Shown here one piece after another: positions 5,936-25,936 of a DNA stretch of 25,936 nt. The stretch's first letter is position 1. The number at the start of each line of letters is the position of its first letter. The stretch is taken from positions 1-25,936 of IMG/VR virus record IMGVR_UViG_2778261639_000014, one strand, 5' to 3'. The DNA is from a virus. Its lineage: Duplodnaviria > Heunggongvirae > Uroviricota > Caudoviricetes. Both the position numbers and the translations under genes were made by a program. The notes below the pieces were generated by a model that was given only the letters and a program-made list of their open reading frames with translations, had not been told where the DNA came from and made no database searches.

Positions 5936-5978
5936 TTTTTAAGTAAATTCAAAAATACAGCATAAAGGATGACTTTCG

Positions 5979-7175: not shown

Positions 7176-7191
7176 GGAGTAAGAAACCCCC

Positions 7192-8193: not shown

Positions 8194-8197
8194 ACTT

Positions 8198-8285
8198 TCG
8201 CCATTCAAATTTCACTATTAACATACTGTTTTTAAAGTAAATCCATCTAAAATTTCAAGGTGAAATCGCCACGATTTCACCTTGG
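8198..8285. other. parS: Partition site parS (P1 type)
   Basis: Box B TCGCCA (8198-8203), box A ATTTCAC (8209-8215), AT-rich ~45 bp spacer (IHF-bend-like), inverted box A GTGAAAT (8260-8266), box B TCGCCA (8266-8271), box A ATTTCAC (8274-8280). Confidence 0.85.
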
Positions 8286-8337
8286 ATTTTACCTTCCGCC
8301 CCTACTCCCGAAAAAAATAAAAAAATTGCTTGTCACG

Positions 8338-8368
8338 AGAAAGTCAACAAGTGACTTTCAATAAAATC
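8338..8368 (+). promoter_or_regulatory. Late (Lpa-dependent-type) promoter upstream of the gene-23-like operon
   Basis: Inverted repeat AAAGTCA-N5-TGACTTT followed 3 nt later by a -10 TAAAAT and no -35. Fits the organisation recalled for P1 late promoters. Confidence 0.5.
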
Positions 8369-8397
8369 TCTTCCGAAAAGGGATTCACACAAGTGCC

Positions 8398-10125: not shown

Positions 10126-10151
10126 TCAGGGGAAGTTCTCCGTTTAACATA

Positions 10152-10170
10152 GCGCCCCCGTGCGGGGCGC
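10152..10170 (+). other. Intercistronic GC-rich hairpin without U-tract
   Basis: GCGCCCC-CGTGC-GGGGCGC between the gene-23-like and sheath genes. No T-run follows, so probably an RNA processing or stability element rather than a terminator. Confidence 0.4.
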
Positions 10171-10185
10171 ATAACAGGGAAAGTT

Positions 10186-11775: not shown

Positions 11776-11784
11776 GGAAATACA

Positions 11785-12600
11785 ATGAGCAAAAACTTTT
11801 TTCAATCCGGGGCATTTTTGGGGAATGGACTGTCCCGTTTCGCTTTGAACTCTGATCCTGTGCAGCTGATGGAGTCTGCCCGAGCAAGCGCTGAACCGCC
11901 AACAGATCCGGTTATTAATAATAATCCGGAACCGGCGGCACAGACTAACGATAACGTTCCATCTGCCCCGGCTCCTGAGCAAATCCTGGAAGGGAAAGAC
12001 GGTAAAGAATGGACCGTCGAACAGGCGCACCAGATGATTCTGGAAGCTGCAAATCGAAGTGCTATGCAGAATGCGTTGAGTGATGCGGCCGACGCCGTTT
12101 TCGCCTGGGCTGATAGCGGTGATCTGACTTTCGACTCCCTTGATGGTTTCGTTCAGGCTATCGCTGGTATCTCTGATGACGACGACTCCGAAGTTACAGA
12201 AGAACAGGACGATGCCTATAACGAAGCATGGGCAAATGTTGCTGACTTCCTCGCAGCATGCGGTGTAGATGATGACCTGATCGAAGCACTGGCTGACGAT
12301 GAAGACGACGACGCAGCTGCTGATGTTGGTGCCTCTATCGCTGGTTTAGATAGCGACGACCGCGACGAACTGGAAGCGGCGTTTGTTGTTGCTGGCACTT
12401 CTGATGAAATGCTGACTGAAGCATTTAAGAAGGTTGTTCGTAATGGTGAGATCAAACTCATCCGTAAACGCCTGCGTAAAAAACGTCTGACTGCGGCTCA
12501 AAAATCGGCGCTGAAAAAAGCGCGTCGAAAAGCCCAGACCGGCGCGGCAAAACTTGCCCGCAAAAAGTCAATGAAACTGCGCCGTAAGCGCCTTGGCTAA
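11785..12600 (+). CDS. Charge-segregated protein (acidic body, basic C-terminal tail)
   Basis: 271 aa with AAGGAAA SD. Long D/E-rich stretches (DDDDSEVTEEQDD, DDEDDDAAADV) and a K/R-rich final ~50 aa (KRLRKKRLTAAQKSALKKARRKAQTGAAKLARKKSMKLRRKRLG). No enzymatic motif. Confidence 0.6.
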   Translation: MSKNFFQSGAFLGNGLSRFALNSDPVQLMESARASAEPPTDPVINNNPEPAAQTNDNVPSAPAPEQILEGKDGKEWTVEQAHQMILEAANRSAMQNALSDAADAVFAWADSGDLTFDSLDGFVQAIAGISDDDDSEVTEEQDDAYNEAWANVADFLAACGVDDDLIEALADDEDDDAAADVGASIAGLDSDDRDELEAAFVVAGTSDEMLTEAFKKVVRNGEIKLIRKRLRKKRLTAAQKSALKKARRKAQTGAAKLARKKSMKLRRKRLG

Positions 12601-12635
12601 AGGAGGAGGCCGGAGAACTCCGGCCTTTAACTTGA

Positions 12636-13217
12636 ATGGCACCTATACCTTATGGGGTTTACAGCCAGGCTGACGGTGTATCGCCATTTCTGAAAGTTAC
12701 TTTAACGAACTCTCAGTACCAGGTTACCGGATATATCAGCCAGGGGGCAGCAATGAACATGGCCCAGAATTGGGAAGCGCCGTTTACCGGTATGTCCATG
12801 GGGTCTGTTGCTGGTGCTTTCAGTGGTTTTGCGCAGGTTGGTACTGAAACAACGTCGGTGGCCCGTTGGAACAGCTTAATGGTTTGGGAAGGGGGGACAC
12901 CGCCGACGTTCACGCTGCCCGTAACTTTCATTGCTTTGAACAATCCATTCATTGAAGTTTCAGGCGCTATCGCCGCGTTGACAGCCATGATTAGCCCGGA
13001 ACTAAAAGCGGCCAATGTTGGTGGTCGAATCCCGGAACGTGTGACGCTAAACATTGGTCGCCGGATCAACATCACCGATGTCGCTATCCAGGACTTAAGT
13101 TTTGATCTCGATGCGCCAAGGGACAGTAATGGATATTTCCTGAAAAACACCGTCAACCTCCAGTTGACCGGTTCTTCGATATATAACAGCTCCGATATTG
13201 TTCGGGCGTTCCAGTAA
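12636..13217 (+). CDS. Hypothetical late-operon protein (tail component candidate)
   Basis: 193-aa ORF preceded by a GGCCGGAG/CTCCGGCC hairpin. Gly/Ala/Thr-rich. No diagnostic motif. Confidence 0.5.
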   Translation: MAPIPYGVYSQADGVSPFLKVTLTNSQYQVTGYISQGAAMNMAQNWEAPFTGMSMGSVAGAFSGFAQVGTETTSVARWNSLMVWEGGTPPTFTLPVTFIALNNPFIEVSGAIAALTAMISPELKAANVGGRIPERVTLNIGRRINITDVAIQDLSFDLDAPRDSNGYFLKNTVNLQLTGSSIYNSSDIVRAFQ

Positions 13218-13228
13218 AAGGATTTTAT

Positions 13229-13738
13229 ATGGGGCACAATAACACTAAGGGAAACCGTAAATTTATTAAGGGCCGCTATACTGCCAACGCGGCCAAAGGC
13301 GAACGACTGGTATCTTCTGAATTCCAGCTCACTTTTGCAGGCCATGAAGATATCAGCGTACTGGTTCGCACGTCGCAAATTCCTGAAATGACCCGCGAGG
13401 ATGTGGAGGACTATGGTCCGAATGGTGTGAAGTTCAACCAGCACGGTCCAATTCGAAACTCTGGGGAAATCCAGGTCCAGTGCGTGGAGACTATCGAAGG
13501 CGATATTCTTCAGTTCATTAAGGATCGCATTGCGGCGAAGGACTATGTTGATATCACGATGGCTGCGACCCCTGAATCCAAATCTTCCGGGGTTAACGCT
13601 GTGACTAAAGCTGCTACAACAATTGAAATGTTGGACTGCAAAATCTACAGTGATGCAATCGACTTTAGTACCGAAGATGTGACTGCCGCTGTGCGCCCGT
13701 CACTTCGTATCGTCTACAACTGGATTGATTGGGATTAA
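13229..13738 (+). CDS. Tail tube protein candidate
   Basis: 169 aa with AAAGGA SD. Last gene of the sheath-containing operon, followed by a strong terminator. Size fits a myovirus tube protein; assigned by size and position only. Confidence 0.45.
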   Translation: MGHNNTKGNRKFIKGRYTANAAKGERLVSSEFQLTFAGHEDISVLVRTSQIPEMTREDVEDYGPNGVKFNQHGPIRNSGEIQVQCVETIEGDILQFIKDRIAAKDYVDITMAATPESKSSGVNAVTKAATTIEMLDCKIYSDAIDFSTEDVTAAVRPSLRIVYNWIDWD

Positions 13739-13757
13739 GAGCCATCCCTTGTATTTT

Positions 13758-13782
13758 AAAGCTCCTTCGGGAGCTTTTTTTA
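13758..13782 (+). terminator. Rho-independent terminator of the late structural operon
   Basis: AAAGCTCC-TTCG-GGAGCTTT hairpin followed by T7, 20 nt after the stop codon. Confidence 0.85.
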
Positions 13783-13909
13783 TAACTATTTTATATAAAA
13801 ATGCATCGATAACATTGTCTGGAGTTTTATGTTAGATTATTAATGTTCTAATAAACTACAATTATTGCGGTAGATGTTTGTGCCTGTACTGTTAAAGGGG
13901 GACTCTAAA

Positions 13910-14506
13910 ATGGCTGTGATTCCAATGTCGTACTCCCCGGGTACTGTCGCTCGTCGATTTTCGATCCTGGACGGAGTTACCATCCAGGGTGTGCTTTACC
14001 AGGTTATATGGGATTCCAAAACCCCATTTGCAGCTGTAATAGAGGCTGCGCCTTCTGTTATCGATGGTGATATGCGGCATAAGGTTGTCGCTACTCTTGA
14101 ACTTCAACGTCGCCCGCAGCTTGAAGGCGTACTGGTAAGGAAGTTCTGGGAGGATAGCGATGTTGGCCAGATTGAAGGTATCGTGGTTGATGGAACTGTC
14201 CGGGATGTCGGTTTAGCTACTTTTGTTTACGAAACCGTAGCCTCAAAAGCTGGTGTTGTTTTGCTCAGTGATAATGAGCAATACGAAGGTGGAAAAGCTC
14301 TTTGGCAACATATCGCCCGTCGCTCTTCCGAGCTAAAAGTGTTTATCCTCGACACCGATGCTGCTCAGTATTACCCGTTTGACGGCGAACGTGTTTGCTA
14401 TGACGGGAAAAGTATTCCTGAATCCGAGATATGGAGTGAACATCCGGATCGAAGTAAGCATGGGGTTGTTCTTGTCGCAGAATCCATAACTGGAAAGGCG
14501 GCATAG
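13910..14506 (+). CDS. Hypothetical protein (orphan gene with its own promoter)
   Basis: Track ORF 13874..14506; ATG 13910 preceded by AAAGGGGGA. 198 aa. Preceded by a ~100-bp AT-rich promoter-like region. No recognisable domain. Confidence 0.55.
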   Translation: MAVIPMSYSPGTVARRFSILDGVTIQGVLYQVIWDSKTPFAAVIEAAPSVIDGDMRHKVVATLELQRRPQLEGVLVRKFWEDSDVGQIEGIVVDGTVRDVGLATFVYETVASKAGVVLLSDNEQYEGGKALWQHIARRSSELKVFILDTDAAQYYPFDGERVCYDGKSIPESEIWSEHPDRSKHGVVLVAESITGKAA

Positions 14507-14688
14507 CAGTAAAAAATTCCTTGCTCCTTAAAAGGGGAGAGGGTTAATCTACGTATGCTAAGCATAGGTATGGCCCCGGTTAATGTTAAGCGTTGTGCGG
14601 GACGCATAATGTTTACTGGGGCTTTCTTCTATCTGCTTTTCGGGGAATGCCTGAAGCAGATAGCCTCAAGCACACCGCAGCGGGTGTA

Positions 14689-14934
14689 TCAATGTCTGGC
14701 TTTTTTTCTATAGAAATCACCTGGAAGGGTGAATATCCACATCAGAAGAAATGTTGCAGCAAACATGATCCCTAATGGCCAGACCGCGCCAAAGAAAATC
14801 CATACTAAGATCTCCTCTGCTCGTTCTTTGCGGTCGATATCGACAAGCATTTTTCGGCTGATCATGTATACACAGAAGCCAATACAAACATATCCTGCAA
14901 AAGCGATCGCTAACTGTAAAAAATCAGATTGCAT
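14689..14934 (-). CDS. Small two-helix membrane protein
   Basis: Track ORF 14689..15015; ATG at 14934 preceded by GAGG. 81 aa with two hydrophobic helices (LQLAIAFAGYVCIGFCVYMI; ILVWIFFGAVWPLGIMFAATFLLMWIF) and a basic C terminus. Confidence 0.5.
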   Translation of the reverse strand: MQSDFLQLAIAFAGYVCIGFCVYMISRKMLVDIDRKERAEEILVWIFFGAVWPLGIMFAATFLLMWIFTLPGDFYRKKARH

Positions 14935-14964
14935 CTCCGACCTCAAACTGAAAACGCCAGGTGA

Positions 14965-14981
14965 CTCCAGATTAGAGCAAT
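14965..14981. promoter_or_regulatory. C1 operator-like site between repL and the small membrane-protein gene
   Basis: Core ATTAGAGCAAT (14971-14981) matches the conserved half of the C1 operator; the upstream half is degenerate. Lies 4 bp below the repL stop and ~35 bp upstream of the membrane-protein start. Confidence 0.45.
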
Positions 14982-14984
14982 CTA

Positions 14985-15830
14985 TCACCCTCTGAATCCT
15001 GCCGGTATACCCCATTGTTCGTTATCTTTATTTTTGGCTAAAACCGCATTAAGAGCTTCGTTTACCGTCATGCAATGCGGCAGATTATCGAAGTTTGATA
15101 CCCCGCCAATATCAGGAGAACGCTTGTTCTTCAGGTAAGCATATTTCCGCGCTGCCGCCTCTACTTTCTGCTTGAACTCATGTTTTTGAGCGCGTTTTTT
15201 GGATAACCGCAGATTGTCAGCCTTTGCTTTTGCCTCAGCGATCCATGAAGTCAATTTTTTGAGTCTGGTCGTTCCGGCACCGCCGGAAACTGATCTTTTT
15301 GTTTTTTTAACTTGTGACTTCTTATTCTTTATTGCCACGTCATCCTGACAGGGGGAGGGGGTATCATTTTGACATGGGGGTGTGGATAAAAAATTAAATA
15401 AAGCCAATGTCTTAGCGAGAACAGCTTTAACCTTGGTTGCCGCTGAAGAGATCTTTAATTTGCTTTCAATCAGCGCATTTTTGGCTTGTTGTGCGAAGGC
15501 CAAAAAGGATGGTGTAAACCGGTACAGGTTAGCGCGACGTTCATGGTGATCGCCGATAACAATCTCTACAGACAGAATTCCTTTGTTTACAGCTTCACGG
15601 AATGCACGAACGACGGTTGATTGGCTATAACCAGTTTCTGCCGCGATCAGGCGGTGAGGCTTGTGAATGAAGTATTCACTAGTTGTTGCCGCGAGATTTG
15701 CACATTGCGACAGGATATGCCCGGCGCTACGGGATAGACCGGAGTGTGTTACAAAGCAGGCCAATTCATAGCCAGAAAAAGTAAAATCGCTCATCGTTAT
15801 ACAGCTCAGGAAAGTGACTTTAGCCAGCAT
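14985..15830 (-). CDS. repL: Lytic replication protein RepL
   Basis: 281 aa from the track start; internal ATG at 15794 is an alternative. Matches P1 RepL as recalled (MSDFTFSGYELACFVTHSGLSRSAGHILSQ). Directly downstream of kilA as in the P1 kilA-repL operon. Confidence 0.8.
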   Translation of the reverse strand: MLAKVTFLSCITMSDFTFSGYELACFVTHSGLSRSAGHILSQCANLAATTSEYFIHKPHRLIAAETGYSQSTVVRAFREAVNKGILSVEIVIGDHHERRANLYRFTPSFLAFAQQAKNALIESKLKISSAATKVKAVLAKTLALFNFLSTPPCQNDTPSPCQDDVAIKNKKSQVKKTKRSVSGGAGTTRLKKLTSWIAEAKAKADNLRLSKKRAQKHEFKQKVEAAARKYAYLKNKRSPDIGGVSNFDNLPHCMTVNEALNAVLAKNKDNEQWGIPAGFRG

Positions 15831-15859
15831 TACAATGCTGGTGGTTCTTACTACGTCTG

Positions 15860-16660
15860 TTAGCGCGTTGCCGCGACAGGTACCAGCACACCAGCATCAA
15901 GCAATCGCTTCATCAGCCACTGCTGACCTTTGCCGGTTATACGAGTCGTGAAAGAAATCCTGCTTCCATTGCTTGTATCGATCACGGTTTCTTTAAGGGT
16001 GAAATACCCACGGGATATGTATTCTTGTTTGGGGACGTTCCTGCGTTCACCGGTTGCGATCAGAATTCCGTTATCACGCAACCAGGTGAAGAGATAGTTT
16101 TGGCCCAGGCCGAGCACTTTGGCATAGTTGCCGATTAGAACTCCGCTGGCGGTAGCAACGCGTTCGGCGAATTCGACTTTAGGTGCATCCATAAGCATTT
16201 TTTGCTCCAGCCGTTGCTTTTGCTCTGCCAGGTCGGCAGCCAAACGGAGAGCTTCAGGGAGACTCTGCGGAATAGCAGGTTGTAATCTTCCGGCTCGATA
16301 GTCGATAAATGTCTGGTTTACCTTCAGCCGAAACGCGGGAGAAATCCAGCCTGCGTACTCCACAGCGAGCAATTCATGGGCAAAAGTGCCGCCGCCACGG
16401 CCTTCGAAAGAAACTATGCAATTCTGCATAGTTTCTTTTTCAAGCTCTTCGATGAGCTGTTTGGCTGACAGCGTTCTTAGCCATTGAGCTGGCGCTTTAT
16501 GGGCACCGAGTCCGCTCGCTCTGTGTAGAGCATTAAGGTTGTAACGGCCAGCGCGGTCGGTCGTAATTTCAACACCACAAATAACAGGCAGAGTGGTTGA
16601 AGGATCGACATTTTGATGAAGGTTTGATATATTCATATCCGCATTGAATGTTTGTTGCAT
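15860..16660 (-). CDS. kilA: KilA (KilA-N DNA-binding domain plus antirepressor-type C-terminal domain)
   Basis: 266 aa with GGAGAAAAA SD. C-terminal half (IPQSLPEALRLAADLAEQK ... TGKGQQWL) is clearly paralogous to the C terminus of the upstream ant-like protein. Preceded by a C1 operator. Confidence 0.85.
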   Translation of the reverse strand: MQQTFNADMNISNLHQNVDPSTTLPVICGVEITTDRAGRYNLNALHRASGLGAHKAPAQWLRTLSAKQLIEELEKETMQNCIVSFEGRGGGTFAHELLAVEYAGWISPAFRLKVNQTFIDYRAGRLQPAIPQSLPEALRLAADLAEQKQRLEQKMLMDAPKVEFAERVATASGVLIGNYAKVLGLGQNYLFTWLRDNGILIATGERRNVPKQEYISRGYFTLKETVIDTSNGSRISFTTRITGKGQQWLMKRLLDAGVLVPVAATR

Positions 16661-16729
16661 TTTTTCTCCAAATTTGCATCAACCTTCAATCACCAGCTCG
16701 AAATGGTGATTCTTTGCACTTAGAAAACG

Positions 16730-16746
16730 AAATTTATTAGAGCAAA
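16730..16746. promoter_or_regulatory. C1 operator (P1 Op53-like) controlling kilA-repL
   Basis: AAATTTATTAGAGCAAA is the reverse complement of the C1 operator consensus with one mismatch, ~70 bp upstream of the kilA start. Confidence 0.75.
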
Positions 16747-16789
16747 TTTTTCTGGCCCGATCCAGATCGGGTTGGTCGATCTGCTCAGA

Positions 16790-16818
16790 AACCTGCCAGT
16801 TTGCTGGCAGGTTTTTTC
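16790..16818. terminator. Hairpin terminator between ant and kilA
   Basis: CCTGCCAG-TTTG-CTGGCAGG flanked by an A-run on one side and T6 on the other. Strong in the + direction, weaker (short U-tract) for the minus-strand ant transcript. Confidence 0.5.
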
Positions 16819-16823
16819 TTTTG

Positions 16824-17867
16824 TTAACCTATTGCTACTGGTTTTAACAAACCAGCATCAAGTAGCTTGCGAGTTAACCACTGCTGGCCTTTACCCGTTA
16901 ATTGGGGCGTCAGCCGTATCTGGTAGCCATTTTCATCATCCAGCACCACTTCTTTCACCGTGAAATATCCGGCGTTGATGTACTGCTGGCGCGGTACGTT
17001 TTTGCGCGCACCAAAAGCCATGAGAATGCCGTTCTGGCGCAACCATGAGAAAAGGGCGTTTTGCTTAAGTCCAACGACCTTTGCAAAGTTCCCGATCAGG
17101 ATTCCATTAGCCGCTGATACCCGGTCGGCAAAATCGACTTTAGGGGCTGCGGCCACCAGCTGTTGTTCCAACTGCATTTTCTGTTCTGCCAACTCGGCAG
17201 CCAGGCGTAGAGCTTCTGGTAATGTTTGGGGGATCGATGGGGTAGGTGAGTTTGCCTGCTGCAATTCTTCCAGTTTGTCGATCAGCGAACGGCGGACCGC
17301 TTTCGATTCGCGCGCGGCGACTCGCAGGGCTTGTTTGTAGGTCATGGTTATGACCTCAAAAGAGCGCCCGGCCCTTGTGCCATGGGATTTTACGAAAGTT
17401 TCGTAAAATTCCCCATCAAGTTCATCCTTAATTCTATTGAGAAAATCGTTATTGCGGATCTCATTTTCCCTACATAGCTTGCGCGCATCATTAACCATCT
17501 TTAACAGCGTCTGGCTGTCGATTGTGTCTCCAGTGTTGGAGATAACATTCACAGCTGGTGATGGCGTAGCTGAAGCAACAGATGCTGGTTTTTTAACATT
17601 CAAATTATTACTGGTCATTCTATGTGCCTCCTTTCTCATTTCTGCTGCCACCGTTGCGTAACGTAGACGTCCTTGTTCAATCAAATAATCCCTGATCTCG
17701 GCTATCAGTAGCCTGTTGATCACAGCCTTATCTGTTCGGGTATAAAAACGCCTGGTTATCATGAAATAGTTGGCAATTGCGCCGGGGATCTCCCGTGTCG
17801 GCATACAGGCAGTATGCAGGGCGATCGCTTCGGCTATTTCATTACGGGTGACGAGAGGTTTTTTCAT
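16824..17867 (-). CDS. ant: Antirepressor (P1 Ant-like)
   Basis: 347 aa. Central Rha/AntA-like region and C-terminal antirepressor domain shared with KilA. Preceded by an overlapping 73-aa ORF and a C1 operator, as in the P1 immI operon. Confidence 0.8.
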   Translation of the reverse strand: MKKPLVTRNEIAEAIALHTACMPTREIPGAIANYFMITRRFYTRTDKAVINRLLIAEIRDYLIEQGRLRYATVAAEMRKEAHRMTSNNLNVKKPASVASATPSPAVNVISNTGDTIDSQTLLKMVNDARKLCRENEIRNNDFLNRIKDELDGEFYETFVKSHGTRAGRSFEVITMTYKQALRVAARESKAVRRSLIDKLEELQQANSPTPSIPQTLPEALRLAAELAEQKMQLEQQLVAAAPKVDFADRVSAANGILIGNFAKVVGLKQNALFSWLRQNGILMAFGARKNVPRQQYINAGYFTVKEVVLDDENGYQIRLTPQLTGKGQQWLTRKLLDAGLLKPVAIG

Positions 17868-18085
17868 AAAACCCCCTGAACGTCAGCAGAGAAGGGGAGG
17901 TTCCAGTAACTAAGTGAATTGCGCGAGTTAGTAGAAAAACGGGCAGTAAAAATGCAGGGGCCATCAGGCAATTGAGAGCGTGCTTCGTCTTCAGTTGCTG
18001 CGATAACGAAGTGATAGTGGTGTTTTTGGCAGGAGTAAAAGCGCCAGATAAATTCAGGATGAGTAGGGGTAGGGATAGTAGCCAC
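17864..18085 (-). CDS. icd: Icd-like small protein overlapping the ant start
   Basis: 73-aa ORF with GTG start and AGGAGG SD 9 nt upstream; its stop overlaps the ant start. Same size and arrangement as P1 icd as recalled. An alternative 81-aa frame (17842..18087) is also open. Confidence 0.5.
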   Translation of the reverse strand: MATIPTPTHPEFIWRFYSCQKHHYHFVIAATEDEARSQLPDGPCIFTARFSTNSRNSLSYWNLPFSADVQGVL

Positions 18086-18270
18086 AATGGCAGCCTCCTT
18101 TTGCTAATTTAAGGAGCTACCGCGTGAGGTTCCAATCTCAATGGCGGTAGCACTGACTGGGTTGGAACTACCGGCGCAAAAGGGAACCGGCCTGCCTTTC
18201 GGCAGCCCAGCCAGCACTACCATTGATCTCGGAGCTATGTGCTACGTATGGCTGTGCGATGGCATGACAC

Positions 18271-18410
18271 AAAAAAAGACGCTTTTGGCGTCTGTGTCGC
18301 CTTTTGCATTATCCGGGGTCTCAATCCCGGCACCCGTTTTAATGAGGTGCCTGATAAGCATAAACCGAAAATGCCTCAAGGCGCAAGAGGTCAGGCTCAA
18401 TGTAACATCG
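18271..18410 (-). ncRNA. c4-like antisense regulatory RNA region (immI leader)
   Basis: Between the operator/promoter at ~18415-18441 and icd: a T-arm-like stem-loop CCGGG-ATTGAGA-CCCGG (~18311-18336) and a GACGC-TTTTG-GCGTC hairpin followed by U7 on the minus strand (~18271-18292). Fits the position of P1 c4. Boundaries not determined. Confidence 0.3.
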
Positions 18411-18424
18411 GTAGTTAAAAAACA

Positions 18425-18441
18425 CAATTCATTAGAGCAAA
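18425..18441. promoter_or_regulatory. C1 operator-like site (P1 Op51-like) upstream of the immI-like module
   Basis: Core ATTAGAGCAA at 18431-18440 within a 17-mer with ~3 mismatches to the consensus. Lies 4 bp from the pacB stop codon. Confidence 0.6.
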
Positions 18442-18444
18442 TAT

Positions 18445-19929
18445 TCATTCATTAAGCCATGCCAGAGCTTCATCAACCTGCGCTTCGTCTTCGACGCTAA
18501 GCACTTCATCCTGGGGAACATAATCCGCCAGCATAGCGAAACAATATGTATCCCAATGGTCTGGTGAGTGCAGGTTGAGTTTTTTCTTCATATCCTCCTT
18601 ACTCATCACCTTCCATTGACCTGCGGAGTTAATCCCTACAGGGATTTTCGACGCTTCCTCAATAGTTTCATTACCCTTATCCAGTCTCATACGACCAGAT
18701 TTTACGGCCTCTGCGGCTTGAACATTGGCATAAGCACGTTTATCAAAGTACAGGCTCTTATCTTCACGGCTATGCATCTTTTTACCCCAGCGTATACGCT
18801 GTACGGTAATACCATAATACTCGTACATCAGATCCGCCGTTGCTTTACCCAGGCCATCGCCGTCTATCGCTATGGTGATATTGGGGAATCGCTCAGGATT
18901 ACATTCTGCGAAAATTTTGGCGGCAAGCTGCGTTTCTGTAACGTCTGTGTATTCCAGCATTCGATAGTTGATTACACGGCGTTTATTTCGCTGGCCGGAC
19001 ACCATCATGATATTGATAACGGACTTATCCCGTCCCGTACCACCAGCAACGTCCACACATGCAAGCCAGCCCCATCCTTTGGCAATCTTGACTTTCCGCC
19101 GCGTTGCACGTTCAACCTCATCACGTCCAAGAAGGAAGCCATCCTGTGATTTAGGGAATAGGCCGCGTACCTTAATCATGTACATAGGGTTATCACGCCC
19201 GCCGTACTCCGCCAGCTTCATTTTGATAAATGCTGGCGTTACCAACGGTGATTCCTCACTGTTAAGCGTGATCGCCGTATAAACGCCATCAGGGTTACCA
19301 GGACGCTTGGCCAGTTTATGGTGTGTATCGTAGAAATAGCCGCTTGGGCGTGTAGGCTGTGACAGCAATAAGATGCGGTTATCCTGTCCGGTAAGAGCAC
19401 CGGTGATGATACCGAAAGCTCTATCACTGACACCGGAGGCTTCATCGATAATATACAGAAGATGATCTGCGTGTTCACCGGCGAGAGCTTCTTCACTTCC
19501 CAGACGAAAGCCCTTCGGTACTACAGTCCATACACCTTTACCAGTAACCTCATAGAAAGCGGTTTCTGTCAGAACAAAATAATCAGCAAGCCATGGAAAA
19601 CGGCTGGTGGCAGTAGCCCAGTTTATCTTGATGTACTTGAATATACCGGTCATTACCTGCTGAATTTTGTTCGCAACGATAATGGCTCGGGCACCGGGAT
19701 ACATGATTATGAACAACATGATCATGATAGAAGTCATGTCTGATTTCCCGGTACCGTGACCAGACGAAACAGATGTCTTGCTACCCTGTTCCTGCACAGA
19801 CTCAATAATCAGATCCTGCTGCCAGGTAGGTGTTTTGCCGAACAAAACATCAGCGGCAGCAATCCAGTCATAACGATATAGCGCCACCAGCTCGCGCCAA
19901 CGTGGATCCGTTACGCAACTTCTGGCCAT
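18445..19929 (-). CDS. pacB: Terminase large subunit PacB
   Basis: 494 aa. Walker A GHGTGKS, Walker B-like [12 protein letters not shown]-terminal nuclease-like acidic region. Start overlaps the pacA stop. Confidence 0.9.
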
Positions 19930-21122
19930 TAATCATCATCCCCGTATAGCTTGCGGGTAACTTCTTCGTCTTCCTCCTCGTCTTCGTCCAAGTCTTGTTC
20001 CAGCCATGGGTCGTTTGATACACCTTCAGTATCAACATCTCCATAACCGCCTGTATCAACGATATCGGCGATTTCTTCCCTACGCTGCTCAATCCACAAT
20101 GCGGCATCGGCGCGGCGGTTGGCGGCCCGTTCTCGCGCAACTTTGTCCAGATCTTCAAGAGAAGGGCCACCGACGGCTGTTTGCCTTTCCTCATCATCGG
20201 TATTGGTCTTAGGAGCACGCAGATCGGCTTTGATTTGCTCCAGCATCAGGGGCGGCACTTTTCCGCCATGCGCCTCGATGAATTCAGCTGCTTCCAGCAC
20301 TGACCAGTTATTTTCACGCTTTCGTTCGTATGCCAGCTTAACAATGCCAGCTTGCCCCATAGACAAAGCGTGCTTTTCCGCCTCCCGGCTTTCTTTTCGA
20401 TAGTTATTCCGGATGCTGTAAATGGTGTTGATCAGGCTGCTTATCTGCGCGGAACAGCTGTTTAGCATGCTCGCGATACGATATTCAGGCGGAGTCCCTT
20501 CATCATCGTCTTTTTGCTGATCGCGCATTTCCTGCACCAGACGAATACACGTATCCCTGGCGTTCTCCAGCATAAGGAGATGAGAGAGAGACTTTTCCAG
20601 AAGAGTGGTTTCCAGAACATCAGCCCCGGACCGACGCAACATAGCGCGCGCGGCCTTCCGCGCTTCAACGTTATCTATCAGGTAATCGCCAGCTTCGAAT
20701 TCAAAGCGTTCACCATCATCATCCAGGGTGTCGCGTTCCAGGCGATCACGTAAGGTCCGGTGGGCGCGGGTGATCACGTCATGATCATCAGAACGATCAT
20801 TTATGCGCTTATTCTGGCGCTTCGCGTTCTCGACTGCGGCACTGACAACAGCATTAACTCTTTGTTTTTCAGCCATTTCAGCCGCAATGTGATCACCTGC
20901 ATGTTGATCATTAGAGTGATCAATGATCATGCTTTTTAGTGGCTTCCTGACTGGCTTATTTGGCTTGCGGCTGTCCGCTGTCCTGGTGTCTTCTTTGAAG
21001 GCACGGAGATAACGACGTGCGGTATTAGGGTTAAGATTAAACTCGGCGGCATACTGTGCGATGGTGTAACCACCATCTCGCGCCAGGCGAGCAAAATTCT
21101 TCTTGTGATCGTCCCAGGTCAC
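19929..21122 (-). CDS. pacA: Terminase small subunit / pac-recognition protein PacA
   Basis: 397 aa with GTG start. Immediately upstream of pacB and contains the pac hexamer clusters. Acidic C terminus. Confidence 0.85.
20742..20930 (-). other. pac: Packaging site pac (TGATCA/G hexamer clusters)
   Basis: Two clusters of GATC-containing hexamers inside pacA: ~20742-20798 (CGATCA, TGATCA x2, CGATCA) and ~20889-20928 (TGATCA x4), separated by ~90 bp. Matches the described P1 pac architecture of 4 + 3 hexamers flanking the cut region. Confidence 0.75.
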
Positions 21123-21207
21123 TTATGCTTCCTTTCGTAAAAACTCTTTTTGACGCGAGGGTAACGAAAGTCACATGTCAAAAGGCCCGGAACGGGCAAG
21201 CAATCAA

Positions 21208-21660
21208 TCAGATACGTGCGGATGTGGCATTACCGTAATGACGGTGCTGACGGGCCACCTTATTGAAAAGTTGACGCGCCATTACCCAAGGCTGGTGCTC
21301 CCGGCGTTCCTTTTCGTCCTGCGTCATATAGAGTTCGTTCTGGAGTTTTTCATCAAACCGGCGCGGCGCGCGGCTGCGGCGAAAGAATTCAGGATTCAGA
21401 GAGTGGATCTGAAATCTACGTGGGCGTGTACTGTCATCAATCAAAACAGACGAATACTTAGACACAGCGATAGCCTTTAAGCGCAGATAAACGTCGCGCT
21501 TATCGACATCCAGATGCGGGTATTCCTTTTCAAGGATTGCTGCGAGTTCTTTCGCTGATAGAAGAGATTTAGTGCGGATCATGTAATCCGCAATCTCGTA
21601 CGATGTTATTCGTGAGTGATTTATTTCCATGAAGTGGCGTCCCTGCCAGTTAAGTAACAT
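21208..21660 (-). CDS. lpa: Late promoter activator Lpa (putative)
   Basis: 150-aa basic protein ~70 bp downstream of a C1 operator and immediately upstream of pacA. Position and size fit P1 lpa. Alternative start at ATG 21630. Confidence 0.55.
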   Translation of the reverse strand: MLLNWQGRHFMEINHSRITSYEIADYMIRTKSLLSAKELAAILEKEYPHLDVDKRDVYLRLKAIAVSKYSSVLIDDSTRPRRFQIHSLNPEFFRRSRAPRRFDEKLQNELYMTQDEKERREHQPWVMARQLFNKVARQHRHYGNATSARI

Positions 21661-21730
21661 CCTGTCACCTACTGATTAGCCCATGTCAACTAATCAACGT
21701 GGAATATAATACCCTAGATTAAAGAAGTAG

Positions 21731-21747
21731 CAATACATTAGAGCAAT
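21731..21747. promoter_or_regulatory. C1 operator-like site upstream of lpa
   Basis: 17-mer with core TTAGAGCAAT (21738-21747). Adjacent to the stop codon of the upstream gene and ~70-85 bp from the lpa start. Confidence 0.55.
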
Positions 21748-21748
21748 T

Positions 21749-22792
21749 TTACCTAACGCTCGACGAGTGATTTGTGATAGCGCCGACTCCAAGCGCGTAA
21801 TCAAAGAACAATCGTTGATGCATCGCCAGCCTACCGTGCGTCTTCTCCCAATTATCGCGGTCACGCTCAATATCACGCTGGCATGACTGGCACAGAGGAA
21901 TTGCGTAAATGTCATGCGCGCATAATCGACTATGACGAACGATATAAGGCGTAATGTGAGCGCCAGCTCCCGCCGCTCCACACCCACAGCATGGACGGGA
22001 AGCAACAAAGTCCATGTACTCAGGTAATTTTAGCGATTGCAGTTTTGGTATTTTGAAATGCGCCATGCCAGGGTCGGAGTCAACATCCACAGGGCATACT
22101 TTTGCACGCATCGGCGCGGCGCGTTCTTCCATCATCTGGACATATGCTGTAGCGCGATCGTCATACGGGCGAATATCCGCCTCTTTCAGAGGTCCGCTAT
22201 CCTGCGTTGCGGCTTTCATCTTATTTATTGATATACGGTAAACTTCTTCCGGCATCAGGTGCATCATGTTGCGCATGAAAGCCCACCAGCACAGTTCCTG
22301 AATACTTAAATCATGGCCATCTGAAAGCCCCATTTCCTGACGGGCGACATCCAGTATCCAGTTAACGCGATTATTATGCAGCGTTTCTTTCAGCTCATTA
22401 AAACCACGCATCCGGTAATGGTTATCGTGATGCCAGCACAACAACACCGCGCTCTTGTCTCGTTCAGCGTGGACAATATGGTTGTCACACCAACTACGAT
22501 CTGCGGCCTGGCATTGCCCCTCTTTCCTGCGCAACCACGCCACCAGCGCGTCAATTCCACCAATACGGCGAAACAGTTCATCGCTATTAAAAAACGGCTG
22601 CAACGCCTCATTTGTTGCCATAGTTTGCTCGGAAACAACGAGGCCGTCGTCCATGTGCTCGATTAACTCACGCGGCACCGGCTCCATAATAAATTTACGG
22701 CCAGCCTCCACCAGCTTTCTGACTTCCTGATCCACTTTGAATGTGGCGACGCCAAGCTCTTTTTGTACAAAGGGAGTAATTACGGCTTTCAC
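21749..22792 (-). CDS. Cys-rich protein of unknown function (position of P1 pdcB)
   Basis: 347 aa. C-terminal cluster CCGCG...H...C.HD...PLCQSCQ suggests a zinc-binding or HNH-like element. No other motif recognised. Confidence 0.5.
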
Positions 22793-22819
22793 ATCACACC
22801 TTTCATCACTGATTGGGCT

Positions 22820-22999
22820 TTATCTGCTGCCCGGCATTCTCTGTTTAAGCACAACCATTTCCTGACGGCATAACACAGCAATAGCGGTCCTGACACCAAC
22901 TTGCTTACCAACCAGGTATTGCTTTACCTCGCGGCGACTCACGCCATCAAGAAGCATCTTTAACGCTTCACGGGACAATTTGTTGTATTTGCGTGCCAT
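22820..22999 (-). CDS. Small basic protein, possible HTH regulator
   Basis: Track ORF 22820..23020; ATG at 22999 avoids overlap with doc. ~60 aa with a helix-turn-helix-like segment (LSREALKMLLDGVSRREVKQYL). Confidence 0.4.
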   Translation of the reverse strand: MARKYNKLSREALKMLLDGVSRREVKQYLVGKQVGVRTAIAVLCRQEMVVLKQRMPGSR

Positions 23000-23003
23000 T
23001 AAT

Positions 23004-23384
23004 CTACTCCGCAGAACCATACAATCTACGTAACGTGTCGGCGACAGAAGATACAGATATCTCGCCAGTCGCAGCGCCTACAGTAAGGTCTGCCAGTTCA
23101 GGTGAATCAAATACCTGCACCCCGTTACGGCGTAGAAATAGCAGCGCACTGTTTAGCGCGGTACGCTTATTGGCATCATTGAATATATGCCCTCTCGCTG
23201 TAGCCACCAGGTAGGTGGCGGAGACTTCGAAAAGGTCGGTGATCTCTTCGTAGGCAACTCTGGCCTGAACTCTCCCGATAATGGCCTCTGCCCTACCCGG
23301 ATCTGACATGCCAGGCAGGCCGCCGTAGCGGCTTATATTCGCATCATGAAGCGCAACAAGTTCTTCCGGTGATATATGTCTCAT
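23004..23384 (-). CDS. doc: Doc toxin (Fic/Doc family)
   Basis: 126 aa. Matches P1 Doc as recalled ([25 protein letters not shown]). Its ATG overlaps the phd stop as TAATG. Confidence 0.95.
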
Positions 23385-23605
23385 TATCGGTTAACCAGTT
23401 CCTTGTTGGTGGAGTCCAGGGTGTCAAACAGGGATGCAAATTCAGCATCCAGCGCCGCTTTTTTGTAGGCTTCGAAAGTAGCCTTGCTGACAATTACTGC
23501 TGGCTCACGGCCTCTGCGGGTGATTTCAACCTCTTCCCCGGCTTCAACATTGTTGAGCACTTCAGAAAGGTTGCCACGCGCGGTACGGAAGTTAATGGAT
23601 TGCAT
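23384..23605 (-). CDS. phd: Phd antitoxin
   Basis: 73 aa from ATG 23605 (track gives an upstream GTG at 23611). Matches P1 Phd as recalled ([39 protein letters not shown]). Confidence 0.95.
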
Positions 23606-23610
23606 AAACA

Positions 23611-23640
23611 CCTCGTGTACTCGTTATGTGTACACAATTA
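23611..23640 (-). promoter_or_regulatory. phd-doc operator/promoter with GTGTAC-centred palindromes
   Basis: Perfect 10-bp palindrome TGTGTACACA (~23627-23636) and a second GTGTAC half-site (~23615-23620) just upstream of phd, next to a TATAAT-like -10 on the minus strand. Confidence 0.5.
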
Positions 23641-23677
23641 TAAACTTCACAGGCATAAAGCACCAGCACTTTGCAGC

Positions 23678-24067
23678 TTAAATAACCGGACAATCATCAA
23701 ATTCCCCACTTCGGGCATCATTGATGACATGAGTGATCACACCAAAAACAGCATTACTGCCCGTGTATCCATCGTCATCTACTGGTAACGCCTCTTTCTT
23801 CCCGGTGCTTAAGTCCTCCAGGTGCTGGCGCGGATACTTCCTGTATCTCTTTATGCGATATTCACCCTCCATAGCGCACACAAGCAGAGAACCATCAACC
23901 GGAGTAAGCGAGGAATCAACCACCAGCAAAGCACCCTGCAATATTCCCTCACGGTGATGGCTATCAGCTGCCCGCATGAAGTAGGTCGCTGAAGGATGTC
24001 TAATTATCTGCTGATCAAGAGAAATTCGGCTTTCAACATAATCCGCCGCAGGAGAAGGGAAGCCCAT
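23678..24067 (-). CDS. humD: HumD (UmuD'-like S24 peptidase-fold protein)
   Basis: 129 aa. Resembles UmuD lacking the N-terminal arm (GFPSPAADY...). Preceded by a LexA box. Confidence 0.85.
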   Translation of the reverse strand: MGFPSPAADYVESRISLDQQIIRHPSATYFMRAADSHHREGILQGALLVVDSSLTPVDGSLLVCAMEGEYRIKRYRKYPRQHLEDLSTGKKEALPVDDDGYTGSNAVFGVITHVINDARSGEFDDCPVI

Positions 24068-24085
24068 AGCGTTTTACCTCAATGA

Positions 24086-24105
24086 TACTGTTTATTCATA
24101 CAGTA
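24086..24105. promoter_or_regulatory. LexA (SOS) box upstream of humD
   Basis: TACTGTTTATTCATACAGTA is a perfect CTGT-N8-ACAG SOS box, 19-38 nt upstream of the humD start codon. Confidence 0.8.
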
Positions 24106-24190
24106 TACATTGAAAAGGCATAGTTTGTGAAAGCGGGGTTTGTAGGCGCGCCACGCTGGGGGCTAATCACATTTCTCCCCCATCTTGCCG

Positions 24191-24442
24191 TTATTTTTTT
24201 GGTGCATCCTCGTTCTGATACACCGGATCGCTCCCTTTTGGCAACTGGAGGCTTAACTGCCGGTAGTGCCGTAGCCGTTCCATGAAATAGGCGCGCAGGT
24301 TTTCCGGTTGCTCACGGGCCACCTGCTCTGCAATCACAGGTATATTCAGCCGTTCTTTGTAAGCAACGCCGCTGGCGGCAAGGTCTACGTTCACCTTGTC
24401 TCGCTCTTCCTGGCTTTTAGCTGCTATATTTCGATCTGACAC
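24191..24442 (-). CDS. hot: Hot (homolog of Pol III theta subunit HolE)
   Basis: 83 aa, GTG start with GGAGG SD. Similar to E. coli HolE as recalled ([33 protein letters not shown]). Confidence 0.85.
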
Positions 24443-24474
24443 AAGAAACCTCCAGGAGTTAGTGGATCAGGCAC

Positions 24475-24825
24475 ATGCACAATAACGTTCTCAATGTTAG
24501 CCGTTCAATTCAGACAATCAGAGACTGCACCAGTGTGGTGGCATCAATCCCATTGCGGAACAGCATAGACGAACTGCAAATTCGTGTATTGAATCCGAAT
24601 CAGGCTAATAAGCAATTGCGCTTTATTTTGACGCTGAAAAGTGAAACAGAGGGGATAAAGCACAGCGTAAAAGTGTTTTCTGAGGCCATTCTGCTTAATG
24701 GGAAGCTCCGGCATCTGGTAAGGCCAGAACGTCAATATCCTGACGTCCTGGCGCGTGAAAAAGACCTTCTTTCTGAAGTTCAGGATAGGGTGATCGATTT
24801 CGTCAAATGCTATCCCCTGCATTGA
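24475..24825 (+). CDS. Hypothetical protein divergent from hot (position of P1 uhr)
   Basis: 116-aa ORF 32 bp from the hot start on the opposite strand. No recognisable domain. Confidence 0.45.
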   Translation: MHNNVLNVSRSIQTIRDCTSVVASIPLRNSIDELQIRVLNPNQANKQLRFILTLKSETEGIKHSVKVFSEAILLNGKLRHLVRPERQYPDVLAREKDLLSEVQDRVIDFVKCYPLH

Positions 24826-25094
24826 GGGCAGGTGTTCCCTTCCGCAAAGTAGGGAAAATTGCTATCAAGTTCATCACACCATCTGCGATGGTCGTAGCAC
24901 CAAAACGCCTCCCACGGTGCACGGAAATACTTCATCCACCAGGACACTCGATCAGGTATATCTTCTGGTGGCAGTTCTTCTGGCAATAATTTGCCTGATA
25001 ATTCCCTTTCCGCCCGCGACAGCATTTTTTTGAGGCTCGCGTTCTCTTTTTCAAGCTCATCTACGCGCACCTGTAATTCAGCTTTCGTTGGCAT
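24810..25094 (-). CDS. Hypothetical coiled-coil protein with C-terminal Cys/His cluster
   Basis: Track ORF 24810..25175; ATG 25094 preceded by GAGGTGG, giving ~94 aa. Coiled-coil-like N terminus and C-terminal W.YDHRRWC...CPQC. Start lies 13 nt after the stop of the upstream gene. Confidence 0.4.
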   Translation of the reverse strand: MPTKAELQVRVDELEKENASLKKMLSRAERELSGKLLPEELPPEDIPDRVSWWMKYFRAPWEAFWCYDHRRWCDELDSNFPYFAEGNTCPQCRG

Positions 25095-25761
25095 GGTCCA
25101 CCTCATGCTTTTCAGCCACCAGCGGCAATAAAGCCCTGGCCATCTTATGAACCAATAGTGCATCAATAATGCCAAGCGTATGCCCCGGCTTAATGTTTAA
25201 TGCCGCCTCAAGGTGACACCTTTCCAAGCCACTTTTCTCGGCTTGTTTATGATGATCTGGTGTAATAACGTCGCCCAAAACACGGCTAATTCTTTCTCGT
25301 AATTGCTGGGTGCCAGCACACTTGATCGCTGTATCGTGGAGACGGTTAACCAGTTCGCGATAAACATGCGGCTTAATGCGGATACGTTCACCGGTGACGC
25401 CCTTTCCTGGCGCTGGCACCGAACTATCCGGATAGTTGCCAGCCTCGTAAGCTACCCGCAGCCAGTGCATGAATGTTTCAGTGGACACACAACCACAGTC
25501 CACATCGATTTTTCCGCGTTGCTGTTCCAGCCATTGCCCAAAATCCAACCTGTAAGTCTTACTTTCAAGTTCATCACCATTGAACTCGACTTTCTGCGAC
25601 GCTATGAGAGCTGATTCGTATTGTTCGCGAGTGACAACTGACTGGTATTCATCGCTATCAAGGTCACCAATTGGAAGCTCAATCTCACAACAAAAATTGC
25701 GCCCAAAGAAAGTGTCTTTTTTGTGGTCTGAGCCAAAAGCAAAAGTCGCGCATGGTGCCAT
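25078..25761 (-). CDS. Hypothetical protein
   Basis: 227-aa ORF convergent with the uhr-like gene. Contains several Cys/His pairs (CGC, HHKQAEKSGLERCH). No domain recognised. Its upstream region runs to the window edge. Confidence 0.5.
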   Translation of the reverse strand: MAPCATFAFGSDHKKDTFFGRNFCCEIELPIGDLDSDEYQSVVTREQYESALIASQKVEFNGDELESKTYRLDFGQWLEQQRGKIDVDCGCVSTETFMHWLRVAYEAGNYPDSSVPAPGKGVTGERIRIKPHVYRELVNRLHDTAIKCAGTQQLRERISRVLGDVITPDHHKQAEKSGLERCHLEAALNIKPGHTLGIIDALLVHKMARALLPLVAEKHEVDHANES

Positions 25762-25936
25762 TAAATTGACACTGGGTACTGAGAGATCCCCTCATAATTT
25801 CCCCAAAGCGTAACCATGTGTGAATAAATTTTGAGCTAGTAGGGTTGCAGCCACGAGTAAGTCTTCCCTTGTTATTGTGTAGCCAGAATGCCGCAAAACT
25901 TCCATGCCTAAGCGAACTGTTGAGAGTACGTTTCGA

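Follow-up and report, generated by a model that had tools for sequence, protein, structure and literature searches.

In this phage-plasmid DNA, the pacB stop codon abuts a C1-operator-like sequence. This junction is the native left boundary of a second c4-icd-ant cassette of ~1.7 kb, already known, that is situated between pacB and c1. The adjacency thus belongs to a documented accessory cassette of P1-like phage-plasmids and has been reported before. The only unusual part is the continuation of the cassette into kilA-repL, which rests on one draft contig. That contig, NLVG01000060.1 (25,936 bp; assembly GCA_002510355.1), is in its entirety the stretch of DNA analyzed here (the window) and is the only sequence examined in which the fusion occurs. 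Haplotype comparison places the unique joint at positions 18241-18319, 125-200 bp inside the cassette and not at the operator. The fusion is probably either an assembly error or a rare recombinant.

The initial annotation described the pacB stop codon as lying 4 bp from an operator-like 17-mer. The adjacency was confirmed; the spacing was corrected to 3 nt. pacB (18445-19929, minus strand, from the ORF list), encoding the 494-aa terminase large subunit, ends with a TGA at 18447-18445, and the 17-mer, TTTGCTCTAATGAATTG, occupies 18441-18425 on the same strand. This pacB shares 99.5% nucleotide identity with the pacB genes of SJ46 and phiW39, its exact protein occurs in 20,408 blocks of the collection, and it adjoins pacA (19929-21122, minus strand), which encodes the 397-aa small subunit. 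The 17-mer matches the C1 consensus, ATTGCTCTAATAAATTT, at 14 of 17 positions (3 mismatches). Four sites with three or fewer mismatches to the consensus were observed in the window, compared with 0.11 expected from shuffles. When scored with a position weight matrix (PWM) built from 16 annotated P1 operators, which themselves score 7.0 to 27.0 bits, the site reached 16.3 bits, ranking third among the 51,840 17-mers of the window and falling inside the range of real operators. Of the other candidate sites in the window, a single one (21731-21747) also has the G that this 17-mer carries at position 12. As the positional homolog of P1 Op51 (Oc4), the 17-mer aligns with the operators of both P1-type and variant canonical immI loci, and 198 nt separate it from the C4 gene downstream; for Oc4 in P1 the distance is 187 nt.

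A putative sigma-70 promoter equivalent to P51a (18399-18427, minus strand) was read by eye, with a geometry like that of the P1 annotation. Its -35 element, TTGTGT (18427-18422), covers the final 3 nt of the operator and is separated by a 17-nt spacer from an extended -10 element, TGTTACATT (18407-18399). The same overlap is found in P1, where the -35 element of P2c4 overlaps Oc4 by 3 nt. A strict consensus promoter scan made no call at 18399-18427; the promoter comes from alignment with P1 Op51/P51a. An immI-type operon has its regulatory head in the segment from 18400 to 18450, with C1 binding and promoter activity predicted from homology.

The proposal that this operator heads an immI-like module was borne out: leader, C4, icd, and ant1, followed by kilA and repL, all lie on the minus strand. 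The leader is an isrK-like RNA element (18272-18350; Rfam RF01394, 59 bits against a gathering score of 50) in which a terminator scan found an intrinsic-terminator-like hairpin (18293-18277) and a complementarity search found a b1-type copy of the C4 target, GCAAAAGG, at 18307-18300. The C4 antisense RNA gene (18140-18227; RF01695, 76.7 bits against a gathering score of 45) is full length. Its recognition sequences, a' (GTTCCAA, 18168-18162) and b' (CCTTTTGC, 18183-18176), identified by complementarity search, give it what we call A-type specificity. The corresponding target sites (18097-18135) are a2, TTGGAAC at 18135-18129, which pairs with GTTCCAA, and b2, GCAAAAGG at 18104-18097, which pairs with CCTTTTGC. 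b2 overlaps the icd Shine-Dalgarno sequence AAGGAGG, and the a2/b2 layout is that of the annotated P1 sites.

Downstream, icd (17864-18085; 73 aa, from the ORF list) has a stop codon that overlaps the ant1 start by 4 nt. The exact Icd protein was found in 93 blocks and occupied the canonical sim-side position in 24 of 24 contigs among the matches listed. ant1 (16824-17867), within which ant2 is nested, encodes a 347-aa P1-type antirepressor (Pfam ANT, 4.5e-31) and is 96.7% identical in nucleotide sequence to P1 immI; the exact protein occurs in 111 blocks, and all 25 contigs among the matches listed have the canonical arrangement. The C1 operator Op53 (OrepL) follows at 16730-16746 (minus strand; one consensus mismatch, PWM score of 23.7 bits), with the same sequence as P1 OrepL. 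It lies upstream of an intact kilA (15860-16660; 266 aa, Pfam KilA-N and ANT), whose exact product is found on at least 1,000 contigs. repL (14985-15830; 281 aa), the lytic replicon initiator gene with oriL, is collinear with P1 50726-51571, and the domain PF26868 (Phage_P1_RepL) was found in related loci. In the proposed mechanism, C1 bound at the operator would shut the leftward promoter. When C1 is absent, a transcript would run through the isrK-like leader, the C4 RNA, icd, and ant, and pairing of C4 with a2 and with b2, the latter lying over the icd ribosome-binding site, would hold back synthesis of Icd and Ant.

The initial annotation stated that pacB in P1 is followed by c1, coi, and lox, with immI far away, and the P1 record (NC_005856) agrees: pacB (91722-93206) is followed by 24 nt, a convergent c1, coi, and lox, and immI lies at 48.1 to 49.7 kb. 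Relative to P1 itself, in which pacB adjoins c1, synteny is therefore broken at the stop codon of pacB. The adjacency of stop codon and operator is nevertheless not peculiar to this sequence, as it is common to RCS47, JL22, vB_EcoM-673R5, and 250 PLSDB plasmids. The same junction was found on contigs with an identical PacB or PacA. After an identical PacB comes either c1 itself or the series ash/icd'/ant'/c1, and the order in RCS47 (NC_042128) is pacB, ant, c1, coi. An insertion between pacB and c1 has already been noted (Venturini et al., 2019; PMC6906374).

In many P1-like plasmids, the cassette takes the place of the 24-nt pacB-c1 spacer. The occupied site departs from the empty site (P1 and locus L013) at base 2 of the stop codon of pacB, which marks the boundary of the insertion. 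The left-junction sequence differs from that of locus L015 at a single position, within the operator. At the right boundary of the insertion there is no operator or direct repeat, only a hairpin beside the c1 stop codon. Three records with full-length, low-identity matches over the junction (NZ_CP074805, NZ_CP053046, and NZ_CP104510) were considered as candidates for the window's arrangement and rejected; they carry pacB, icd, ant, and c1 and no kilA-repL.

To locate the joint, we mapped the window onto two haplotypes, A (canonical immI) and B (pacB proximal). Haplotype A (loci L057 and L058) matches positions 3910-18319 with one single nucleotide polymorphism (SNP), at 13868, and first diverges at 18320; the compared loci begin at 3910, so the match extends from at least there. 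Haplotype B (locus L052) has no mismatches to the window over 18241-25778, the last mismatch being at 18240. Both haplotypes are thus identical to the window over a 79-nt crossover interval, 18241-18319, also in a three-way alignment. On one side, the cassette of NLIO01000060.1 is 100% identical to the window from 18241, across pacB, to 25778. On the other, the variant canonical immI loci (DBBFAP010000044.1, DAJLVX010000063.1, and pP136-6, NZ_CP080229) carry the isrK-like leader, C4, icd, ant1, kilA, and repL and match the window over 3910-18319 except for one SNP; upstream of the leader they have their own operator, sim-replacement genes, pmgC, tub, and sit and not pacB. Our first model, a crossover between a P1-type parent and a pacB-proximal parent (7-nt gap, 18021-18029), was dropped because, to judge from variant canonical loci (L003, L021-L030, L057, and L058), the variant leader was already present in the canonical parent.

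These coordinates bear on the proposal that both breaks relative to P1 fall at C1 operators, which needs correcting on two points: the unique joint is at 18241-18319, and 1285-1301, read initially as a second synteny break, is no break at all. The site at 1285-1301 (minus strand; PWM score of 25.6 bits) is the C1 operator Odmt/Op68, in the surroundings native to P1. Window positions 1-3617 are collinear with P1 66445-62816, and the site maps to the annotated Odmt at P1 65161-65145. The arrangement had been said to fit a permuted genome, an operator-mediated rearrangement, or a misassembly. Of these, misassembly survives, with the joint lying in a repeat, and the haplotype mapping speaks against the other two.

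A genuinely permuted P1 lineage, or the use of the 17-bp C1 operators as microhomology or recombination sites, could draw support from one regularity. In each of the three contexts that were compared (the sim side of P1, the variant canonical locus, and the pacB side), homology between immI-type modules ends at the operator or directly beside it, which makes the operator the outer edge of an exchangeable module. The unique joint, however, lies away from the operator, the right boundary of the pacB-c1 insertion lacks one, and there is no break at 1285-1301. Normal gene order in the closest relatives of each half of the window argues against a permuted lineage, as does the fact that no complete genome examined is permuted. 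Because the joint falls inside a stretch that is perfectly identical between A and B, it points to homology-dependent joining, whether in a cell or in an assembler, and not to operator-mediated rearrangement. We consider the permuted or operator-mediated reading very unlikely, and the haplotype mapping has largely refuted it.

The fusion was then sought in other sequences. The order repL-kilA-ant1-icd-pacB was absent from all 803 matching PLSDB records, leaving no sign there that other phage-plasmids share it, a check that the initial annotation had proposed; it was also absent from phage records. None of 706 matching complete Escherichia coli genome records had the ant1-icd-pacB junction. Among the matches listed, the fusion was absent from the other contigs with identical Ant1, Icd, PacB, PacA, or 198-aa neighbor, and look-ups of the exact Ant1, PacB, Icd, and RepA proteins, covering the 24 blocks with the longest contigs, gave normal arrangements throughout; the source contig was reached through the rarer PacA and 198-aa proteins. 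A search for a hybrid pattern, defined as an A-type icd anchor, a gap of 430 to 458 nt, and a pacB-end anchor, gave no hits in the genome_contigs, viral_contigs, or metagenome_contigs collections, a result with little bearing on E. coli isolates, as the source assembly lies outside these collections. No publication was found for the accessions of that assembly.

The reading we consider moderately likely is that the fusion is a chimeric short-read assembly path through the 79-bp repeat in NLVG01000060.1. The true order on the plasmid would then be pacB, the cassette, and c1, with the sim-side genes, immI, kilA, and repL elsewhere along the same molecule. This reading is favored because the contig is a draft, its breakpoint lies in sequence common to A and B, and each flank matches a normal locus. 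The right end of the contig is the terminal 158 nt of an IS4-family element (25779-25936; ISVsa5/IS10-like), 100% identical to locus L042 4109-4266, beside an annotated ISVsa5-family transposase. This ending within an insertion sequence marks the window as a contig of the short-read type, broken off at a repeat. In another assembly, a contig (L060) ends in the same c4 region, at window position 18164, suggesting that this region is a trouble spot for assemblers. Finally, a literal fusion deletes c1 and keeps intact kilA and repL under bare C1 operators, which should not be tolerated; the P1 annotation of kilA (NC_005856) reads "product can kill host." Against a chimera, the 79-nt repeat together with its diagnostic SNPs (18231-18240 and 18320-18333) would be spanned by any read of at least 100 nt, a de Bruijn link arises only at k of 79 or less, and a careful assembler should have resolved the repeat. 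In addition, A alleles give way to B alleles cleanly, with no patchwork, just as they would after a true single crossover.

A rival reading, which we regard as possible though unlikely, is a real molecule produced by RecA-type homologous recombination between two directly repeated immI-type cassettes. The two cassettes, which stand in direct orientation, have ~350 bp in common that are ~95% identical and include a perfectly identical core of 79 bp. An intramolecular exchange between them would yield a ~45-kb circle with repA-par, phd/doc, kilA-repL, pacAB, and the head and sheath genes and without c1, cre-lox, and the lysis and tail-fiber genes; an unequal exchange between plasmid copies would instead give a partial duplication in which c1 is kept and the hybrid joint occurs once. 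The single clean haplotype switch in a perfectly identical stretch is what one crossover predicts, and the ease with which reads of at least 100 nt span a 79-bp repeat makes an assembler error less likely. The hybrid is, moreover, functionally coherent, with C4, a2, and b2 all coming from the A side. Other rearrangements at the cassette exist in public sequences: in locus L017, pacB occurs with an ANT fragment and darB-side genes, and c1 is missing; in locus L012, the cassette is fused to genes of a lambdoid prophage. At the end of the contig, the insertion sequence cuts a pmgT-like gene short, which suggests that the element was already in decay as a phage.

A recombinant is made doubtful by the occurrence of the joint in one draft contig only and its absence from the 803 PLSDB and 706 complete E. 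coli records. The deletion product would have no C1 but would still have kilA, repL, and lpa intact, together with the operators of these genes; without a source of C1 in trans, it is predicted to kill the cell. A duplication product, for its part, would be unstable in recA+ cells. An improbable version of this scenario is that the contig is real and represents a ~45-kb defective, helper-dependent, possibly packageable P1 "satellite" that survives only on C1 provided in trans by another P1-like element. Such a satellite would have lost c1, cre-lox, and the lysis and tail genes and kept the replicon, partition genes, phd/doc, kilA-repL, pacAB, and lpa. If real, the fusion would be a natural example of a phage-plasmid shedding its phage half. 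The homology between the cassettes (~350 bp with the 79-bp exact core) is sufficient to support a deletion of ~50 kb that takes out c1. Resting on one draft contig, the fusion is mainly a warning about synteny breaks inferred where short-read contigs run through regulatory cassettes that are repeated.

The cassettes of the RCS47 type (RCS47, JL22, and pTZ20_1P) share with the window the TGA, the 3-nt spacing, the operator-like 17-mer, the isrK-like leader, and C4. They run on, however, as icd' and ant' (351 to 372 aa, usually ORF6N plus ANT) and then a convergent c1, whereas in the window C4 is followed by the canonical icd, ant1, kilA, and repL, and no c1 ORF is present in the contig. P1 immI (NC_005856 48140-49731), with Op51/Oc4, P51a/b, c4, icd, and ant1/ant2, has C4 ~190 to 200 nt past the operator, as in the window. 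In both, the a2/b2 sites are placed between c4 and icd, b2 covers the ribosome-binding site of icd, and the 73-aa icd overlaps ant. The window's ant1, kilA, and repL are 96 to 97% identical to those of P1, and the kilA-repL side is as in P1; from 18058 outward, in contrast, the window has no nucleotide homology to P1, and the upstream neighbor of the operon is pacB in the window and simA in P1. The leaders belong to different families (isrK-like RF01394 in the window, c4-a1b1 RF03163 in P1). The target sites a2/b2 are TTGGAAC/GCAAAAGG in the window and TTGACAG/GTTAGTGA in P1, and the a'/b' sequences of C4 differ as well, which implies a different immunity specificity.

The known heteroimmunity of P1 and P7 at c4 has this form: the C4 recognition sequences and their targets differ between the two phages. 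The A and B cassettes show paired compensatory changes of the same kind, with a' GTTCCAA and a2 TTGGAAC in A and a' GTCTCAA and a2 TTGAGAC in B. Because these differences in C4 recognition sequence are compensatory, the two immI-type cassettes, which coexist in many P1-like plasmids, are probably independent, hetero-specific antirepressor switches. To judge from sequence, two specificities that in P1 and P7 reside in two separate phages may thus occupy two loci of one plasmid lineage.

The initial annotation had placed a C1-operator-like 17-mer beside the end of pacB, and this adjacency was borne out. The pacB gene (494 aa; 18445-19929, minus strand) ends with a TGA at 18447-18445, and three bases past it lies TTTGCTCTAATGAATTG (18441-18425, minus strand), which departs from the C1 operator consensus at three positions. 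Four sites in the window have three or fewer mismatches to this consensus, compared with 0.11 expected by chance. Scored with a weight matrix derived from the 16 annotated operators of the P1 reference (NC_005856), TTTGCTCTAATGAATTG reached 16.3 bits, within the 7.0 to 27.0 bits spanned by real P1 operators, and ranked third among the 51,840 17-mers of the window, behind Odmt/Op68 (1285-1301) and Op53 (16730-16746). It lies 198 nt from the C4 gene, compared with 187 nt for Op51/Oc4, the C1 operator at the head of the P1 immI operon, and the TGT.TTTTTAA directly after it aligns to the region of the P1 promoter P51a. The most fitting interpretation of TTTGCTCTAATGAATTG is an Op51-type operator that, with its promoter, heads an operon of the immI type, C1 binding and promoter activity being predicted by homology. 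The fourth operator-like site, ATTGCTCTAATGTATTG (21731-21747, minus strand; weight matrix score, 14.7 bits), is located shortly upstream of lpa and is presumably a C1 operator controlling this late-promoter activator; it has an unusual G at position 12 in common with the pacB-proximal operator.

On the minus strand, the operator is followed by an isrK-like element with a terminator-like hairpin (18350-18272; RF01394, 59 bits), a full-length C4 antisense RNA gene (18227-18140; RF01695, 76.7 bits), icd (18085-17864), ant1 (17867-16824; ANT domain), and, past ant1, kilA (KilA-N and ANT domains) and then repL. One 7-nt and one 8-nt complement of C4 are positioned as in P1: a2 (TTGGAAC, 18135-18129, minus strand) and b2 (GCAAAAGG, 18104-18097, minus strand), the latter over the icd Shine-Dalgarno sequence. 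A b1-type C4 target is also found inside the isrK-like leader upstream of C4. P1 immI differs in having a c4-a1b1 element (RF03163; 3217-3269 of the P1 locus, L002) in place of this leader, which occurs again at 11500-11578 of NLIO01000060.1 (L052). immI-type operons have two alternative leader types, isrK-like and c4-a1b1. Annotations of relatives include a 39-aa “ash family protein” (18104-18223, minus strand; weak PF10554 match) whose coding sequence falls almost completely on the C4 RNA gene and its a2 site, and which probably reflects an RNA gene annotated as a protein.

Alignment to P1 gave four blocks: 1-3617 (P1 66445-62816, hrdC to oriR), 5880-13780 (P1 61312-53412, parA to bplB), 14971-18058 (P1 51585-48497, repL to the start of icd), and 18447-24115 (P1 93204-87536, pacB to humD). 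The intervals between them had no match in P1. The gene order given for P1 in the initial annotation is correct: a 24-nt spacer separates P1 pacB (91722-93206) from the convergent c1, beyond which come coi, imcB/A, and lox, and P1 immI is located at 48.1-49.7 kb, adjoining kilA-repL. A second synteny break, proposed at 1285-1301, is not real: Op68/Odmt sits there between upfC and uhr, exactly its placement in P1. Beside repL (13780-14971), the place of P1 rlfA/rlfB/pmgF is taken by a hok/sok-type locus (14502-14675, minus strand; Rfam sok RF01794, 72.9 bits) together with a functionally uncharacterized 198-aa gene; HOK_GEF genes occur in related loci. The replicon region (3617-5880) is also unlike that of P1. 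Its RepA (294 aa, weak Rep3_C match) is found in 28,212 collection blocks, and where P1 has incA iterons between repA and parA, the window has a GIY-YIG nuclease family gene (5001-5810).

Matches across the pacB/operator junction were found in phages RCS47, JL22, and vB_EcoM-673R5 and in 250 PLSDB plasmids (query, window 17753-19200). In RCS47, a short intergenic region separates pacB from ant (371 aa), after which come convergent c1 and coi. Contigs with an identical PacB occur in two states, one P1-like with c1 directly after pacB (contigs L013, L016, and L020) and the other with “ash,” icd', and ant' (370-372 aa; ORF6N and ANT domains) between pacB and c1 (contigs L011, L014, L015, and L019). 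Comparison of empty and occupied sites revealed that this second cassette takes the place of the 24-nt pacB-c1 spacer. On the left, the sequence changes from base 2 of the pacB stop codon onward (TAA to TGA); on the right, where the comparison detected no operator, the cassette ends just past a hairpin beside the c1 stop. The pacB-proximal cassette was already noted by Venturini et al., with RCS47 named (PMC6906374), and the pacB/operator junction is a common, previously described cassette boundary. The complete plasmid p88_1577-1 (NZ_CP074805.1) has three icd-ant cassettes (1524-2854, 6525-7777, and 8205-9115) and a simA fragment directly beside pacB, which suggests that the pacB-proximal cassette originated by copying of the canonical sim-immI region. 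Positions 11482-13680 of the 654-kb contig SQNQ01000132.1 hold pacB, ANT fragments, and darB-side genes without c1 or cre, and in CP050217.1 (11845-21485) lambdoid prophage genes (DicB, Cro, and P-like) are fused to the cassette. Both loci are further rearrangements at the pacB-proximal cassette, which looks like a hot spot of recombination.

The window is unusual in what follows the cassette: instead of ant' and c1, there are the canonical ant1-kilA-repL genes and, after them, the remainder of the region at P1 53-66 kb. The order repL-kilA-ant1-cassette-pacB occurred in none of 803 matching PLSDB records, in none of the phage records searched, and in no other examined contig with an identical Ant1, Icd, PacB, PacA, or 198-aa protein, and the fusion junction was in no complete E. 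coli genome record searched. Exact matches to the rarer proteins provided the key haplotype comparisons. Haplotype A, the canonical immI locus beside kilA-repL, is represented by L057 and L058, loci from other isolates that equal the window over 3910-18319, except for a private SNP at 13868, and part from it starting at 18320. Their order is the 198-aa gene, repL, kilA, ant1, icd, C4, leader, sim-replacement genes, pmgC, tub, and sit. Haplotype B, the second, pacB-proximal c4-icd-ant cassette, is represented by NLIO01000060.1, which has the ordinary pacB, cassette, c1, cre arrangement and has 100% identity with the window from 18241 through 25778, with the last mismatch at 18240. Because the match to A extends to 18319 and the match to B begins at 18241, the window passes from haplotype A to haplotype B somewhere in 79 identical bases (18241-18319). 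This joint is in the isrK-like leader, and around it the two haplotypes are roughly 95% similar over about 350 bp. Rearrangement mediated by the operator, or a permuted lineage, is very improbable; the joint is homology-based and 125-200 bp away from the operator. The initial annotation was right about a break relative to P1 and in considering misassembly, but the junction that it singled out is the known cassette boundary, and the unique joint is elsewhere.

Through an exact PacA match, the window was identified as the whole of NLVG01000060.1, a 25,936-bp contig in draft assembly GCA_002510355.1. Its last 158 nt (25779-25936) are the terminus of an IS4-family (ISVsa5/IS10-like) element, and short-read contigs usually end at such elements. 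The element truncates a pmgT-like gene (25078-25761) to 227 aa; in NLIO01000060.1, identical apart from this, the product has 309 aa. In another assembly (L060), the contig is broken inside the same C4 region. We lean toward an assembly chimera, in which the assembler would have joined the A and B loci in the shared 79-nt stretch, because no finished plasmid or genome among those examined has the fusion, a draft contig provides its only instance, and lethality is predicted for the deletion product. A real recombinant molecule or subpopulation is a possible but rather doubtful alternative. In its favor over assembler error, the repeat is short enough to be spanned by reads of at least 100 nt, a de Bruijn link requires a k of 79 or less, and the A-to-B allele switch is clean. 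Taken literally, however, the fusion deletes P1 93.3 through 0 to 48.3 kb, removing c1, coi, cre-lox, and the restriction-modification, lysis, tail-fibre, and tail-tube genes. With kilA intact (“product can kill host” in the P1 annotation) and repL and lpa behind C1 operators without C1, such a deletion should not be tolerated unless C1 came from elsewhere. Unequal exchange between two plasmid copies would keep c1 but leave an unstable partial duplication.

Whether chimeric, as we favor, or real, the hybrid joins cassettes that differ in C4 recognition sequence. The A cassette (window 18129-18168) pairs C4 a' GTTCCAA with a2 TTGGAAC, and the B cassette (NLIO01000060.1, about 11680-11720) pairs GTCTCAA with TTGAGAC. 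The hybrid takes C4 as well as the C4 targets from A, which would make its operon functional. The differences are paired and compensatory, which suggests that the two cassettes are independent switches; plasmids with both probably have two hetero-specific C4/antirepressor switches. The heteroimmunity of P1 and P7 at c4 reflects hetero-specific switches between phages. The paired C4 changes of A and B echo that system, except that the P1 and P7 switches sit in separate phages.
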